Virus record (IMG/VR): IMGVR_UViG_3300011008_000259
DNA length: 23,887 bases
Direction: 5' to 3' (one strand)
Origin: a virus
The notes under the pieces were generated by a model. It saw nothing but the letters and a program-made list of their open reading frames with translations. It was not told where the DNA came from and did no database searches. Shown here piece after piece: positions 203 through 6,190 of this stretch (position 1 is its first letter; each line of letters opens with the position of its first letter). Made by a program: the position numbers and the translations under genes.

Positions 203-1723
203 ATGGGTAAGAAAAATAAAAAGGTTACTAATAATAACCGGCCTGGAGCTAATCACGCACGCTTCAGAAATATTAGTCTGAAGACAAAACAAGCTATTCT
301 TCAAGACATTGCTGCTGGAATGGATAGATATACTATTGCTAAAAAGCATAATGTGAGTTCCAGTGAAGTTAAAAGGCTAAAGAAATTTAATTCACGTGAA
401 ATGATGGATTTACGAAATTCGGAAATTTGTAATGATGTCACATTATCGGAGAAGGAAATGATGGATATGATTAAACCACCAATTGGATCAAGGTACAATT
501 CGATCTTCAATGCAGCATCTATTACTCAGGATTCTAGGATTAATCAAGATATACAAGATAAATCTATAGAATCTATAATAAAAGAAGTTGAGGAAGAGAA
601 GATCAAATCAGTTGAAGAGAAAGTAGTATTAACAGAGACTACAAAAATAGAAACTGAAAATATTACAACCAAACAGCATTTCGGAGCTAAAATTAAAGTT
701 ACCGATGATAATGTATTTAATATACTAGAAGAGTTGAAATCTCAGAGATATACTCAGAGAAAGATAGCCGAGATGTATGGAATATCTCCATCTCTTGTTG
801 GACAGATTAAGAATGGACAGGGGAGATTTAAAGCTATCATTGAACGTTATAAATCAATCAATGAAACAACTACATTGATTGATAAACCGGAATTAATTTC
901 TTCGAGTAAAGCAGATATTTTAAATGAAAATAATGCTATTGAAGTAGATTCCTTAATAGCAATTCCTACGGTGGAATCTATTAAAGATAGCGACAAAATC
1001 AATCAGCAAGTTAGTAAAATAATATCAAATGATAATATTCTTACTAAGCGCACTAAAGTTACTACTGGTATTAGAGTCGGAATGATTAATGGTAGACATG
1101 ATATGCCAGTAGATATATTTATCTTTGATAACGTATCCGATTCTTTGATGGTGGATTTTCCAAGACAACATCAGAAAGCATGTTCTAGAATACAAGAAAT
1201 TCTTGATAGCAAAACTAGTAATAGTACTGCTAAGAATTTAATAGTATATGTTACTGGATTAACTTCAGTATTAGCTTCTGTAATCAGAGCATGCTTAGAT
1301 CTTAAAGTTAATTTAAGATTATTACACTGGAATCCCAACAGAGGTAAATATTATCCTCAGGATATTTTTACAGAATTCGGAGATAATAAATCTGTTAAAA
1401 ACCTGTGTCCTCCACAGCTTGAGAATATTCCTTGTAGGCAGTTATTTACTTGTGGATGCACTGGTGTAGAATTTGCCAAGAGAGGTTATGGATATCAGAT
1501 AACTGAGATCTACACTAAAACGAATAAAAATAGCAATGGAGTTGATAAAGATATTACTTTATTTACTGATCAGGATTATGCATGGGCATATTACAGAGCA
1601 GCATGTGAGAATTCAACTAAGGATGTTAATATTATCCTTAATAAAGTTTGCTTTGATAATGAGTCGATGCTTATCGTGCAGAAAACTTTAAGTAAATTAA
1701 TTAATACTTTAAACAATAATTAA
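203..1723 (+). CDS. DNA-binding protein with two helix-turn-helix motifs and a C-terminal alpha/beta domain of unknown function
   Basis: 506-aa ORF; GGAGG 12 nt upstream of the ATG. HTH-like segments are LKTKQAILQDIAAGMDRYTIAKKHNVSSSEVKRL and FNILEELKSQRYTQRKIAEMYGISPSLVGQIKNG. No DDE triad recognised. Confidence 0.55.
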   Translation: MGKKNKKVTNNNRPGANHARFRNISLKTKQAILQDIAAGMDRYTIAKKHNVSSSEVKRLKKFNSREMMDLRNSEICNDVTLSEKEMMDMIKPPIGSRYNSIFNAASITQDSRINQDIQDKSIESIIKEVEEEKIKSVEEKVVLTETTKIETENITTKQHFGAKIKVTDDNVFNILEELKSQRYTQRKIAEMYGISPSLVGQIKNGQGRFKAIIERYKSINETTTLIDKPELISSSKADILNENNAIEVDSLIAIPTVESIKDSDKINQQVSKIISNDNILTKRTKVTTGIRVGMINGRHDMPVDIFIFDNVSDSLMVDFPRQHQKACSRIQEILDSKTSNSTAKNLIVYVTGLTSVLASVIRACLDLKVNLRLLHWNPNRGKYYPQDIFTEFGDNKSVKNLCPPQLENIPCRQLFTCGCTGVEFAKRGYGYQITEIYTKTNKNSNGVDKDITLFTDQDYAWAYYRAACENSTKDVNIILNKVCFDNESMLIVQKTLSKLINTLNNN

Positions 1724-1845: not shown

Positions 1846-2533
1846 ATGTATGAATTTAATTCTATATAAGAAGTGCTAAGTTACATATTCGAAGATAAGA
1901 ATATTACTATTATTAATATTCCCGGAACTCCTCATCCATGGTTTATTGTAGATGAGATTAGAAATGCGTTAGGATATATTAGAAATGAAGTCTTAGGAGT
2001 TCTAAACATTCACGAATTACGTATTTTATGAAGTCGCACCATGAATGATGGTGCGACTTCATATTTAACTAGTAGAAGTTTTAGATGTTCTAAATATTCG
2101 CGAATTGCATGTTTTAGTAAGTCACCCCATGAATGATGGGGTGACCTCCTATTTAACTAGTATTAGTGCTTATCGTCCGACTGTAATGATTATATCATTA
2201 CCAGGATTATTTGAAATTATAATGCGTTCGAGAATGCCTAAAGCTAGAGAATTTCAGCATTGGCTATATTTCTCTGTATTACCTACACTGTATTATAATC
2301 CTCAACTCGTTCAGCAGATTAATACTTTAAATACTGATCTTCAGCAAAGTAGATATTTAACTAATGCTTATCGTAATGAGTGTATCGATTTACGTAAAGA
2401 GAAGATTAAACTTAATAAAGAAGTTAATTCTCTTAATGAGAAAATCGAAAGCGATGATAATAGTTTTTATGATTTAGCGAATATTTGTCAGTTTTATAAA
2501 GATTTATTAGACGAAAATGGAATTTATTATTAG
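1846..2533 (+). pseudogene. Bro-N (BRO family N-terminal) domain gene disrupted by an in-frame TAA at codon 8 and an 88-bp tandem duplication that frameshifts it
   Basis: ATG at 1846 with SD AGAAGG, then MYEFNSI followed by TAA at 1867-1869. The same frame then continues EVLSYIFEDKNITIINIPGTPHPWFIVDEIRNALGYIRNEVLGVLNIHELRIL and ends at TGA 2029-2031. The C-terminal half of Bro-N (ISLPGLFEIIMRSRMPKAREFQHWLYFSVLPTL) is in the +1 frame inside ORF 2105-2533. Conceptually deleting one 88-bp unit (1999-2086) rejoins the two halves into one continuous Bro-N-like frame. Confidence 0.6.
1999..2174 (+). repeat. Two tandem 88-bp direct repeat units (1999-2086 and 2087-2174), each containing a perfect 10-bp-stem hairpin
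   Basis: Unit 1 contains GTCGCACCAT-gaatg-ATGGTGCGAC and unit 2 contains GTCACCCCAT-gaatg-ATGGGGTGAC. The units are about 85% identical, and the two stem differences between copies are compensatory on both arms. Confidence 0.8.
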
Positions 2534-2652: not shown

Positions 2653-5385
2653 ATGATGTCAGATATTACTAGCAAACATTTTTATTGTCTGGCTAAAGAA
2701 TCTAATTTATATGTATTAGATCCTTATAAGCATGGAAGAGATAATAAGTTATTATTTTATTCTCATCTTAAAGATGCTATTGATGCTATGCCATCATTTG
2801 CCGAAAATGAATTATATTCTGTATATGTACCTACACTGATAGATAAATTAAAAATACATGATGCTGAATATGGAGTAATGATAGCTACTGAACCGATAAG
2901 AGTGAAATTTTGTGGTTTATGTAGAATAGAAAAAAATAGTGATTATTTTGATAGGTTTGAACAACGTCTTATAGTAGATGAATCTTCTAGAAATCTAGCT
3001 AAAGTTATTAGTGATGAATATAGAGATAATGGACCATTAAAAGATCTTGAAGATTTTAGTTATTTGCTCGATCATACTCCATTAGATAAAATATATTTAT
3101 CATCTGATTGGCATCTATTTAAAGAAAAATATAAAAAAGAAAAGAATAGAGTTAATATAGATAAGATAATAGATTGGTGTCAAGATAATATTAAACCTAG
3201 TGATATATTTATGTATCTTGGAGATATAAGTTATAGATTTGCTTCATTACAAGATCAACAAAAATCTGCTAAAATAATGAAATCTATACCTGGTCATAAA
3301 TGTTTAATACTTGGTAATCATGATGTATTTATTGGGCAAGAATATTATAAAGATGCTGGGTTTGATTATGTATTTGAAGAATATGAATGGAGAAATATAA
3401 TTTTTTCTCATAGGCCATTAAAAATGGAACTTGATAAAGATAAACTTAATATACACGGTCATATGCATGAAGAAGTTACTTATAGAACTAGTAATGGAGA
3501 TCATCATGTTAATGTATATCCTTATTTTTATAATAATAAACCTGTAAATTTAAAATTTATATTAGATCATAAACAAGAATTAATGAAAGACCATGTATGG
3601 GAACCTAACTATGGTTACGGTGAAGGAGCTTTACCTGTGAGGAGTTACTTTCAAACATTGCACAGTTCCTCGGGTAATATTATAATTAATGAGTTGGCTT
3701 CTAGATATGGACGTGAATCTAGAAGATCTGTAGTATATTTCTCTAAAAATATTAATAGTAAAACTATTAAAGATATGATAGAAAAATTATCTATACAGCT
3801 TAAAAATAAAGTTGCTATAAAATTACATTTTGGCGAGAAAGGTAATAAGAATTATCTTAATCCTGAATTATTAAAAGATACTGTAGAATATTTAACTAAT
3901 AAAGATTATGATTATGCTTTAGTAGATTGTAATACCACATATGGTGGTTCTAGAGATACTACTGAGGGACATCTTAAAGTTGCTAGAGAGCATCATTTCT
4001 CTGATAATTATAAAGTAGAGATTTTAGATGCTAATGGTGGTATGACATTAAGTAATCCTGAATATAATAAGATAGAAAAAGAATTAGATAAAATAAATAC
4101 TAAAGAAGATATTAAATTATATCAGTTAAAATCTACACCCGGAATACATATTAAAGAAATTGATATTGGTAGCGGAATAAAAGATTACGGTAGTATGATA
4201 GTATATACCCATTTTAAAGGTCATGAAATGGCTGGATTTGGTGGAGCTATTAAGAATATTGGTATGGGTCTTGCTACTGGAAGAACTGGTAAGATGCAAA
4301 TCCATAGAGATTGGAAATCTGATAATTTATTCTTAGAGAGATTAGTAGAATCTGCTAATACTATAACATCATTCTATGATGGTAAAATGATATTTATTAA
4401 TATATTAGCTAACATATCATTGGAATGCGATTGCCATGGAGATTCTAAAGTGAAACCTGTGATGGACGATATTGGTATTGTTGCTGGTAGTGATATTGTT
4501 GCTGTAGAACAAGCATCTATAGATCTTATTAGAAAAGCTTCTGATAATAAAGAACTTATGGAACAAATATCTAATATCGGAGCTTATCATGCTATAGAGT
4601 ATGCTGAATGGTTAGGAATGGGTAATAGAGAATATATATTAAAAGATATTAATTGTAATAATATTAATATAGATGAATGTATACAAACTCATATGGGTAA
4701 ACATGTAACTGAATCTAGTATAGATGAATCTTTCTTATTATCTGATGATGATTTAATGTATAATTTCGATAAATTTTTATCTGGTGAGACTAATATGGCT
4801 CTTGTAGTAGGATTCTCCGGATCTGGTAAAAGTACTATAAGTGCTGCTATGAAAATGAATTCTAATTTGACTGTATTTTGTTCATTAGATGAATTGATTA
4901 ATATTGCTGATGGATTAATACAATTAAATCAAGCAAGTACTATAATGCAAAAATATTATAATCAAGTCGGAATTAAGCTATTACAATCTAGTGATTATTT
5001 AGATTATTCTTATAAAGCTGTTAATATATATTATTCTTTTATAAAATGGATTGATGATGTTGCTATGCATAGTAGTAATATTAAATTTGTTGTTGAAGGT
5101 CTCTGGCCATTATGTTTTAATGATAGGCCTGAAAGGTTTCAAAATATATGTGTTATTATCAAAGGAACTTCGTGGTTAACATCTACTTATAGAGCAGCTA
5201 ATAGAGATCAAAATAGACAAGATATTATGGCTAGATATGGTATGAAAGTATTTAAAAATGCTTTCCTCCGTTTTATAGAATATATTAAAAATAATTCATA
5301 TAGATTTGATAATAAAGATTTAATGATTAAAAATATAACTAAGTGGAGAGAATATTTTACTGCAAAACAAATAATGAAAAAATAA
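2653..5385 (+). CDS. Large multidomain protein: N-terminal unknown region, calcineurin-like metallophosphoesterase, DUF362-like domain, C-terminal P-loop kinase-like domain (polynucleotide kinase-phosphatase-like)
   Basis: 910 aa; SD AAAGGAG. MPP motifs are SSDWH, YLGDISYR, LGNHD, HRP and HGHMH. The P-loop is GFSGSGKST with a downstream SLDEL, which resembles T4 Pnk-type kinases. The central region carries KLHFGEKGN, THFKGHEMAGFGGAIKNIGMG and CDCHGD, which I remember as DUF362-like patterns. Confidence 0.6.
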   Translation: MMSDITSKHFYCLAKESNLYVLDPYKHGRDNKLLFYSHLKDAIDAMPSFAENELYSVYVPTLIDKLKIHDAEYGVMIATEPIRVKFCGLCRIEKNSDYFDRFEQRLIVDESSRNLAKVISDEYRDNGPLKDLEDFSYLLDHTPLDKIYLSSDWHLFKEKYKKEKNRVNIDKIIDWCQDNIKPSDIFMYLGDISYRFASLQDQQKSAKIMKSIPGHKCLILGNHDVFIGQEYYKDAGFDYVFEEYEWRNIIFSHRPLKMELDKDKLNIHGHMHEEVTYRTSNGDHHVNVYPYFYNNKPVNLKFILDHKQELMKDHVWEPNYGYGEGALPVRSYFQTLHSSSGNIIINELASRYGRESRRSVVYFSKNINSKTIKDMIEKLSIQLKNKVAIKLHFGEKGNKNYLNPELLKDTVEYLTNKDYDYALVDCNTTYGGSRDTTEGHLKVAREHHFSDNYKVEILDANGGMTLSNPEYNKIEKELDKINTKEDIKLYQLKSTPGIHIKEIDIGSGIKDYGSMIVYTHFKGHEMAGFGGAIKNIGMGLATGRTGKMQIHRDWKSDNLFLERLVESANTITSFYDGKMIFINILANISLECDCHGDSKVKPVMDDIGIVAGSDIVAVEQASIDLIRKASDNKELMEQISNIGAYHAIEYAEWLGMGNREYILKDINCNNINIDECIQTHMGKHVTESSIDESFLLSDDDLMYNFDKFLSGETNMALVVGFSGSGKSTISAAMKMNSNLTVFCSLDELINIADGLIQLNQASTIMQKYYNQVGIKLLQSSDYLDYSYKAVNIYYSFIKWIDDVAMHSSNIKFVVEGLWPLCFNDRPERFQNICVIIKGTSWLTSTYRAANRDQNRQDIMARYGMKVFKNAFLRFIEYIKNNSYRFDNKDLMIKNITKWREYFTAKQIMKK

Positions 5386-5494: not shown

Positions 5495-6190
5495 ATGTTA
5501 GGCGGATATTTAATTAAAGTTGTTCCTGGTAAACTTCCTCAGAAAGTTGCTTCTGGTTTTGATAAGGTTTTTAATGGTTTTACTGGTGCTAGCTATACTC
5601 CCATTGCATATCTCGGTCATCAGGTTGTTAATGGAATTAACCACGCAGTTCTTTGTGAACAGAATCTTGTAACTGCTAAAGATGTTAAGGGTATTGCTAT
5701 TGTCGTTCTTAATGAAAAACCCGGTGATATCGGTGGAGAATCATTAGAGCTTGTTGAGATTAAATCATGCTTCACTGATAAAGGCATGAAACTTGGTGGC
5801 ATTAACATTACTCCTTCAGCAGAGATTCCTGAAGATGCTATGAAAGTTTGGAATAAGCATTTCGGAAGTGGTTTCTTTGGTGCTTCGAATAAACCATTTG
5901 CTCTTCTTGCTACACAGGTTGTTCATGGAGTTGCTTATTTCTATGCTGTTGAATCAACTATGATTGTTTCACCTATTGGGAATGACGGTCTTGTTATGAG
6001 TGCTGGCAATAATAAGTCAATTACTATTGTTAAACTCTTTAGCGAATATCCTGAGATGCAGTCTATGACTATTCTCGAAGGTGTTGAAGATGCTATTCTT
6101 GAGGGTACTGGAGAAGCAGCTCCTGGAGTGCTTGGACCTGTGCTTGTTGATAATCAGAAGAATGTTGTTAAGTACGCTTTTAATTGGTAA
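5495..6190 (+). CDS. Highly expressed 231-aa protein made of two tandem ~95-aa repeats, each with a cystatin-like Q-V-V-x-G motif
   Basis: SD AAGGAG. Repeat 1 is GFTGASYTPIAYLGHQVVNGINHAVLCEQ and repeat 2 is GFFGASNKPFALLATQVVHGVAYFYAVES. Codon usage differs sharply from the neighbours (GC about 38%; frequent CTT, GTT, GGT and CAG). Confidence 0.5.
   Translation: MLGGYLIKVVPGKLPQKVASGFDKVFNGFTGASYTPIAYLGHQVVNGINHAVLCEQNLVTAKDVKGIAIVVLNEKPGDIGGESLELVEIKSCFTDKGMKLGGINITPSAEIPEDAMKVWNKHFGSGFFGASNKPFALLATQVVHGVAYFYAVESTMIVSPIGNDGLVMSAGNNKSITIVKLFSEYPEMQSMTILEGVEDAILEGTGEAAPGVLGPVLVDNQKNVVKYAFNW

Follow-up and report, generated by a model that had tools for sequence, protein, structure and literature searches.

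A shuffled phage gene combining metallophosphoesterase, DUF362 and P-loop kinase-class modules

Modules of the 910-residue protein

The window, that is, the whole 23,887-nucleotide stretch of viral DNA analysed here (IMG/VR record IMGVR_UViG_3300011008_000259), has a GC content of about 27%, and all of its sizeable genes lie on the plus strand. One of these genes is a 910-aa open reading frame (ORF) with an ATG start, in which a metallophosphoesterase (MPP), a DUF362 domain with the LarA fold, and a P-loop kinase-class domain follow one another (Table 1). The gene belongs to a family in which these and other modules are shuffled between uncultivated jumbo phages, and its product may process small metabolites rather than heal RNA ends.

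The boundaries of the MPP, DUF362, and P-loop modules were set with local hidden Markov models (HMMs). All of the motifs cited in the initial annotation, which was made from the sequence alone, were located in the ORF at the expected positions; judged by the profile evidence, these motifs are not chance matches and the modules are real domains. The layout proposed in that annotation stands for the modules it named; it did not mention that residues 1 to ~129 form an additional N-terminal region. This region had no match in Pfam, NCBIfam, and PHROG searches, and it is kept alongside the MPP in a subset of the relatives (P0003, P0004, P0034, and P0062). The middle region was correctly named DUF362, but it spans about 320 residues (~350-667) and not the ~270 given initially.

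Table 1. Coordinates of the gene, its modules and motifs, and other features of the window.
Feature	Nucleotides	Strand	Residues	Evidence or remark
506-aa protein with central helix-turn-helix (HTH_23/HTH_28)	203-1723	+		Weak homing-endonuclease/repressor PHROG and PADLOC 'HEase' matches
Bro-N/KilAC antirepressor-type gene	2105-2533	+		TTG start; C-terminal part of Bro-N only (profile positions 57-96)
Whole gene: N-terminal region, MPP, DUF362/LarA-like, and P-loop kinase modules	2653-5385	+	1-910	ORF list, full-length homologs, local HMMs
N-terminal region without recognisable family	2653-3039	+	1-129	Pfam, NCBIfam, and PHROG scans
Binuclear MPP module, aq_1665/phrog_547 type	3040-3642	+	130-330	phrog_547, PDB 1xm7
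MPP motif DWH	3106-3114		152-154
MPP motif GDISYR			190-195
MPP motif GNHD			221-224
MPP motif SHRP			252-255
MPP motif GHMH			269-272
DUF362 module with LarA fold	3700-4653	+	350-667	Pfam PF04015, fold search
DUF362 motif KLHFGE			390-395
DUF362 motif THFKGH			519-524
DUF362 motif GAIKNIGMG			531-539
DUF362 motif CDCHGD			592-597
DUF362-invariant residues			K390, N427, Y430, H440, D459, H520, K522, K534, K547, H551, C592-D-C594, D614
LarA-aligned His	4222-4224		H524
LarA-aligned Lys	4252-4254		K534
LarA-aligned His	4303-4305		H551
P-loop kinase-class module	4693-5385	+	681-910
Walker A motif GFSGSGKST	4810-4836		720-728
Conserved downstream neighbour, 231 aa, with internal tandem duplication	5495-6190	+		Similar-sized protein (228 aa) after the ortholog in locus L001
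Vault-like protein, 821 aa	7539-10004	+		MVP_shoulder E=1.1e-23, Vault_3 3e-8, weak SPFH/Band_7
Paralogous multi-enzyme gene, 1,254 aa: GNAT, MPP, transglutaminase-like (DUF553/Transglut_core), DUF6582	10840-14604	+		Pfam, PHROG, BLASTP
Second Bro-N/KilAC antirepressor-type gene	18435-19223	+
PC4-like ssDNA-binding gene	19312-19734	+		Sub-threshold Pfam E=4.5e-4; listed without a weak mark in locus L004
360-aa gene	19718-20800	+		Among deposited phages, distant homologs only in jumbo phages AR9/PBS1, BpSp, and Listeria LPJP1

The presence of a calcineurin-like phosphoesterase was borne out. The MPP region matched phrog_547 ('phosphoesterase') with an E-value of 2.6e-19 and the calcineurin-like Aquifex protein PDB 1xm7 with E-values of 3.7e-7 (single sequence) and 2.5e-12 (profile). 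The other PDB matches of the MPP profile were SbcD (8e-4) and MPPED2 (0.07); chains of CthPnkp or lambda-phosphatase were absent among the PDB matches of this profile, even at E<=1. On these matches, the module is assigned to the aq_1665/SbcD-like type and not to the Pnkp/lambda-phosphatase clade. In tblastn searches, Listeria phage proteins were 31% identical to the MPP. An alignment of 24 diverse family members revealed that the putative metal and catalytic residues D152, H154, D191, N222, H223, H253, H268, H270, and H272 are invariant, and because of this conservation the module looks active.

The model of the C-terminal domain (predicted local distance difference test score, pLDDT, 84) shows a P-loop kinase fold. 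Residues G720, G723, S724, G725, and K726 of the Walker A motif, D746 directly after strand 2, G816 in 'VVEG', and the S844-x2-R847-x3-R851 lid are invariant in 15 family members; this combination is the signature of P-loop kinases. Family profiles gave only generic sub-threshold matches to this region (AAA_17, AAA_29, and AAA_33). When the P-loop profile was compared to PDB sequences, the best match was shikimate kinase (6.2e-7), followed by adenylate kinase 9, Nrk1 (4.8e-6), and AK1; Pnkp1 reached 5.6e-3, roughly 3-4 orders of magnitude behind the small-molecule kinases. The viral proteins closest to the module in BFVD were relatives from gut phages that carry no annotation and entries named generically as AAA, adenylate kinase, or zeta; Pnk entries ranked 17th or lower (E 0.03-0.07). 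The zeta toxin/AAA_33 family, which had been named as the placement that would speak against a Pnk-like kinase, was not the best placement. A further profile search found the P-loop module also as a free-standing protein (200-225 aa, on 160-283-kb contigs) or fused to GNAT or SET, and these relatives never carried a specific family label.

The initial annotation likened this kinase to T4 polynucleotide kinase (Pnk) and took the whole protein for a polynucleotide kinase-phosphatase (Pnkp) that heals RNA or tRNA ends. Following attack by an anticodon nuclease, the P-loop module would phosphorylate 5'-OH ends, the MPP would remove 2',3'-cyclic or 3'-phosphates, and DUF362 would be an accessory. 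Part of the likeness is real: hhalign of the P-loop family against the verified T4 Pnk sequence gave a probability of 91% over 35 columns, in which D746 aligns with the catalytic D35, and the R-x3-R lid resembles R122/R126 of Pnk. However, the Walker A motif, the catalytic Asp, and the R-x3-R lid are common to many P-loop kinases and not specific to Pnk. In T4 Pnk, R38 (D-x-x-R, D+3) holds the 3'-phosphate of the acceptor nucleotide, as established by mutagenesis and structures; the corresponding position is I749 in the protein studied here and aliphatic in the family consensus. The C-terminal module is a P-loop kinase that is Pnk-like only in fold class.

Two further observations would suit end healing: the MPP abuts the P-loop module in six relatives (P0017, P0018, P0020, P0021, P0022, and P0092; gaps of -14 to +15 residues), and jumbo phages use calcineurin-like phosphatases in RNA repair (PMC7824862). 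The type of the MPP speaks against it, as does the lack of sealing functions. The protein has no ligase domain, and Pfam and PHROG scans of the larger ORFs of the window (nearly all of at least 80 aa, plus strand), which cover 23.9 kb of the genome, revealed no Rnl1/Rnl2, RtcB, or Hen1 gene.

The DUF362 module and its likeness to LarA

The match of the middle module to Pfam PF04015 (DUF362) scored 133.8 bits (E=1.1e-38; cut-off, 24). Cellular DUF362 proteins that stand alone, 287-340 aa in length, align with it over ~100% of their length at 38-41% identity; the sources label them 'uncharacterized Fe-S center protein', and some have 4Fe-4S ferredoxin domains. The module keeps every residue found to be invariant in 55 DUF362 sequences from phages and cells (Table 1). 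As previously stated for this family, no function has been established: no paper in the searched literature assigns one to DUF362.

In a fold search, the module showed the alpha/beta fold of LarA, and DUF362 and the LarA superfamily are placed in the same Pfam clan. For comparison, we used the genuine L. plantarum larA from the plasmid lar operon, whose numbering reproduces the published residues D72, R75, H108, H174, F175, F176, K184, H200, Q295, and K298. Residues H524, K534, and H551 of the phage protein align with H174, K184, and H200 of LarA, which are its catalytic His, its cofactor-tethering Lys, and its nickel-ligating His, respectively. The core segment reads H524-E-M-A-G-F-G-G-A-I-K534...H551 in the phage protein and H174-F-F-A-G-F-S-G-G-R-K184...H200 in LarA; between the aligned His and Lys, the A-G-F-x-G stretch is identical. 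The three residues are invariant or nearly so across the 55 DUF362 sequences, and the H-10-K-16-H spacing of LarA is exact in the cellular DUF362 proteins, while the phage copies have one extra residue. The fold search is the sole connection found between DUF362 and LarA; no sequence-profile relationship was detected, and the DUF362 HMMs (A3 and A4) matched no LarA chain and no other entry when compared to the PDB.

The gene neighborhoods of the nearest cellular DUF362 genes were counted over the 80 best genome loci, with locus L005 counted apart. The closest cellular homolog (P0121) has a twin-arginine (TAT) signal and is followed by LarE (1.7e-79), LarB (9.8e-89), and LarC (3.6e-60), all with matches above the curated cut-offs. 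Genes of the lar type flank the cellular DUF362 gene in six of the 80 loci (L009, L012, L025, L041, L053, and L080) and also in L005; they are directly adjacent to it in five of these six, and in L012 the DUF362 gene is located between larE and larC. A search by motif and spacing for a LarA homolog in the bacterial loci returned only the DUF362 proteins themselves. AKR-type genes are present in about 11 of the 80 loci, several of them beside DUF362 without lar genes; L009 and L025 have no AKR in reach, and L053 contains a D-2-hydroxyacid dehydrogenase instead. It has recently been demonstrated that AKRs form a family of nickel-pincer enzymes (NphT; PMC13524815). DUF362 could itself be a so far overlooked enzyme with a nickel-pincer cofactor, or else act as a partner to AKRs of the NphT type.

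The MPP family of the phage protein never adjoins cellular DUF362 genes, which argues that the DUF362-MPP fusion is a phage invention. AKR genes are absent from the phage loci, and the few IMG/VR contigs with LarB or LarC are small and all without DUF362.

Shuffled architectures and phage context

In a search that covered 5.8 billion proteins, 134 relatives were identified, two of which are collinear full-length orthologs (P0001, 899 aa and 77% identity; P0002, 75% identity); most others share only the MPP (residues ~134-320), at about 50% identity. Architectures were counted in 122 proteins with local HMMs for the three modules. The MPP was the only one of the three in 87 proteins. The combination MPP-DUF362 was present in 11, MPP-P-loop in eight, P-loop-MPP in seven, MPP-DUF362-P-loop in four (the protein studied here, P0001, P0002, and P0010), and MPP-P-loop-MPP in two; P-loop-DUF362-MPP, P-loop-MPP-DUF362, and MPP-MPP-DUF362 were each found once. 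With DUF362 in 18 and the P-loop in 24 of the 122, the MPP is the sole common core.

Further modules occur in the same polypeptides according to Pfam: HAD (PF00702 and PF13419), GNAT, DUF6582 (PF20223; the searched literature contains no mention of it), and a transglutaminase-like domain. Three giants were found in IMG/VR. A 1,770-aa protein on a 313-kb contig, in syntenic position, has the order HAD-MPP-DUF362-P-loop-DUF6582-HAD; another of 1,571 aa on a 229-kb contig has two GNAT domains followed by P-loop and DUF362; a third of 2,316 aa on an 89-kb contig contains GNAT and DUF362. The window itself contains a paralogous multi-enzyme gene, whose MPP is 39% identical to that of the 910-aa protein (BLASTP, E=5e-46); together, the two genes partly mirror the module set of the single giants in related phages. 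An odd fusion was observed in P0023 (956 aa), where RNA polymerase alpha-subunit domains (PF01193 and PF03118) are joined to an MPP and a partial DUF362; this fusion might link the family to transcription.

These architectures also bear on end healing. HAD phosphatases share the polypeptide in relatives, as might be expected of a healing enzyme; however, they are of the PF00702/HAD_2 type and not of the Pnk-associated type. The relative P0004 (751 aa) is an MPP-DUF362 protein that ends right after DUF362 and has no kinase, from which it follows that the kinase module is optional. An enzyme dedicated to the two activities of healing would not be expected to have its modules shuffled with those of the GNAT, HAD, transglutaminase-like, and DUF6582 types. 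Because the MPP is of another clade, an Arg38 equivalent and a ligase are missing, and the architecture is shuffled, we rejected membership in Pnkp, and the initial end-healing reading was not sustained; we consider it possible but quite improbable, and weaker than a role in small-metabolite processing.

The gene is located upstream of a block conserved in loci L001, L003, L004, and L087, with the order ~300 aa, ~300 aa, PC4-like, ~355 aa, ~110 aa, and ~400 aa. In AR9, the homolog of the 360-aa gene (g220) belongs to an early operon that also encodes a non-virion RNA polymerase (nvRNAP) subunit, primase, NrdI/E/F, and dCMP deaminase. In Pfam and PHROG scans, capsid, portal, terminase, and MuF markers were absent near the gene, and the conserved downstream genes were essentially without matches. 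The AR9-type homologs of neighboring genes, together with those from 'huge phages' (see below), indicate that the source is an uncultivated jumbo phage; low-GC gut bacteria are the best explanation for the hosts of the family's phages.

A multi-enzyme phage protein of this kind could also be an injected 'polyvalent protein': it would travel in the capsid and enter the host together with the DNA, and within the first minutes of infection each of its modules would independently disarm a host defence or modify a host target. At least two unrelated enzymatic modules per polypeptide, extensive shuffling, and paralogous loci fit this class, of which GNAT is a known component (PMC5512222), and a phosphodiesterase could degrade nucleotide immune signals (PMC7824862). 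Yet the gene is neither fused nor adjacent to a MuF, a portal, or any other virion marker, and its neighbors are the PC4-like gene and the gene whose AR9 homolog sits in the early replication and nucleotide-metabolism operon. MPP, HAD, and DUF362 are not catalogued for polyvalent proteins, where 'phosphoesterase' denotes the 2H domain only (PMC5512222), and in PADLOC the MPP motif region had only a weak match to a candidate system, PDC-S10 (E 2.6e-5, 21.6 bits). As to where and when the protein acts, we consider injection an unlikely but serious alternative; the protein would rather act inside the infected cell.

Other genes of the window are less directly connected to the multi-enzyme protein. 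The vault-like protein shares 39% identity, across ~95% of its sequence, with proteins from 'huge phage' metagenome genomes of 462-735 kb (LR756500, LR756501, and LR756503); a vault-like protein is unusual in phages. The 231-aa downstream neighbor had no match in Pfam and PHROG family scans; in its translation, each half contains Q-V-V-x-G, which recalls the QxVxG signature of cystatins. Because the paralog and P0003 carry transglutaminase/papain-like domains, this neighbor could be an inhibitor or partner of the multi-enzyme protein. The two Bro-N/KilAC genes look like mobile insertions that interrupt the conserved gene order, and the first of them may be a truncated copy.

Predicted role and comparison to known systems

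We favor the explanation that the gene is a member of a modular multi-enzyme family of uncultivated jumbo phages which processes small metabolites and does not heal RNA ends, and give it about an even chance of being correct. The protein would consist of autonomous catalytic modules strung together and reshuffled between phages, and in this copy all three enzymatic modules look active. The MPP would hydrolyse a phosphoester bond. The DUF362 module, because it keeps the Lys/His/His of LarA (tether, nickel ligand, and acid/base), is predicted to bind a pyridinium-nucleotide cofactor of the nickel-pincer type, presumably made by the host, and would use it for hydride transfer, in an isomerisation or redox reaction, on a substrate that bears a hydroxyl. 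The P-loop kinase would move the gamma-phosphate of a nucleoside triphosphate to a hydroxyl activated by D746, under the R847/R851 lid. In its likeliest role, the protein would act within the infected cell on a small molecule, be it a phosphorylated metabolite, a cofactor, or a compound of the nucleotide type. More tentatively, and at well below even probability, we suggest that DUF362 is a previously unrecognised family of enzymes dependent on the nickel-pincer nucleotide (NPN) or a related pyridinium nucleotide, captured by jumbo phages; set between a phosphoesterase and a kinase, it would carry out hydride transfer on a phosphorylated metabolite in infected cells, with cofactor made by the host LarBCE.

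Several observations weigh against this explanation. Among the nearest cellular DUF362 loci, just 7.5% contain lar genes, and four lar-linked loci (L005, L012, L041, and L080) also contain an AKR-4Fe4S gene; at such loci, it may be the AKR and not DUF362 that the lar genes serve. The search for lar genes was negative for the window, for the related phage loci, and for every viral contig with DUF362. H108, R75, and D72 of LarA are not conserved and align to S433, E395, and H392, respectively; some homologs of LarA are known to have just one catalytic His (PMC12611868). The overall hhalign probability of the DUF362 profile against the single LarA sequence was 1.1%, which leaves the residue mapping to the fold match and the short motif. 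The 'Fe-S center' labels of the cellular proteins and the invariant C-D-C could indicate a metal site of another kind. The early-gene assignment comes from a 23%-identity homolog of one neighboring gene, and the substrate can be named only as a presumed class.

A role in the handling of pyridine nucleotides (nicotinamide adenine dinucleotide, NAD; nicotinic acid adenine dinucleotide, NaAD; nicotinic acid mononucleotide, NaMN) was also considered. In this speculative specialisation, the protein would restore or drain NAD-type molecules during infection, with the MPP as a pyrophosphatase or phosphodiesterase, the P-loop module as a kinase of the ribosyl-nicotinamide type, and an NaMN-derived ligand bound by the LarA-like module. 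The cofactor of LarA derives from NaAD (PMC13524815), DUF362 keeps the cofactor-binding triad of LarA, and relatives have HAD modules of the nucleotidase type. However, the match to Nrk1 spans only the Walker A-beta2 segment and is no better than that to shikimate or adenylate kinase, the window scans found no Nampt, Nmnat, Nudix, or ADP-ribose-related gene, and the idea is built wholly by analogy; we regard it as very unlikely. Two other candidates were dropped because nothing supported them. One was a toolkit for inactivating antibiotics or toxins (CPT-like kinase plus GNAT); the other was a pathway for the hypermodification of sugars or DNA, made up of the kinase, the epimerase-like module, the acetyltransferase, and the phosphatases. 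Nucleotidyl- and glycosyltransferases and matches of the 5-hmdU-kinase type were not found.

The analysis of this protein brings to light a family that is large and, it appears, undescribed. It consists of giant multi-enzyme proteins with reshuffled modules, encoded by uncultivated jumbo phages (89-313-kb contigs), and its module set differs from that of the polyvalent proteins catalogued so far. DUF362, with thousands of members in anaerobes, gains a concrete testable hypothesis from the LarA fold, the conserved tethering Lys and nickel-ligating His, and the recurrent larB/C/E adjacency. New nickel-pincer enzyme families are actively sought, with LarA-related folds deliberately set aside (Nat Chem 2026, PMC13524815). 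If this reading of DUF362 is correct, the phage protein would be the first viral one with an enzyme module of the nickel-pincer type, and a large orphan family would gain a lead to its function. For annotation, a P-loop kinase combined with a metallophosphoesterase should not automatically be called Pnkp or RNA repair.

Compared to the polyvalent proteins described by Iyer, Burroughs, Anand, de Souza, and Aravind in 2017 (PMC5512222), the protein shares many-module polypeptides, shuffling, paralogs, and GNAT; MPP, the DUF362/LarA-like module, the P-loop family, the PF00702 HAD, and DUF6582 are absent from that catalogue, and the protein has neither MuF or portal linkage nor a late-gene context. 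Like T4 Pnkp and bacterial Pnkp (C. thermocellum Pnkp/Hen1; Pnkp1-Rnl-Hen1), it carries a kinase and a phosphoesterase in one polypeptide. The phosphatase is a HAD (DxDxT) in T4 Pnkp and a lambda-phosphatase-like MPP in CthPnkp, whereas here it is an aq_1665/SbcD-like MPP, and the protein has no HAD. Relative to bacterial Pnkp, the module order is opposite, with the 320-aa LarA-like module in between, and the kinase is optional in the orthologs.

The LarA superfamily (PDB 5HUQ, 9EIA, 7S91, 4NAR, and 9Q3J), which comprises NPN-dependent 2-hydroxyacid racemases and epimerases, is matched in the Lys/His/His triad. DUF362 differs from it in its own invariant C-D-C motif and in its C-terminal part; moreover, the module sits inside a multi-enzyme polypeptide of a phage without lar genes, and its NPN binding is a prediction. 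The nearest kin of the MPP are aq_1665 of Aquifex aeolicus (PDB 1XM7), itself uncharacterised, and the PHROG 547 phage phosphoesterases, for example the 'putative phosphoesterase' of Listeria phages of the A511/P100-like type. They have the same metal-ligand motifs, but are free-standing proteins of ~190-250 aa, whereas the MPP of the protein described here anchors giant fusions.

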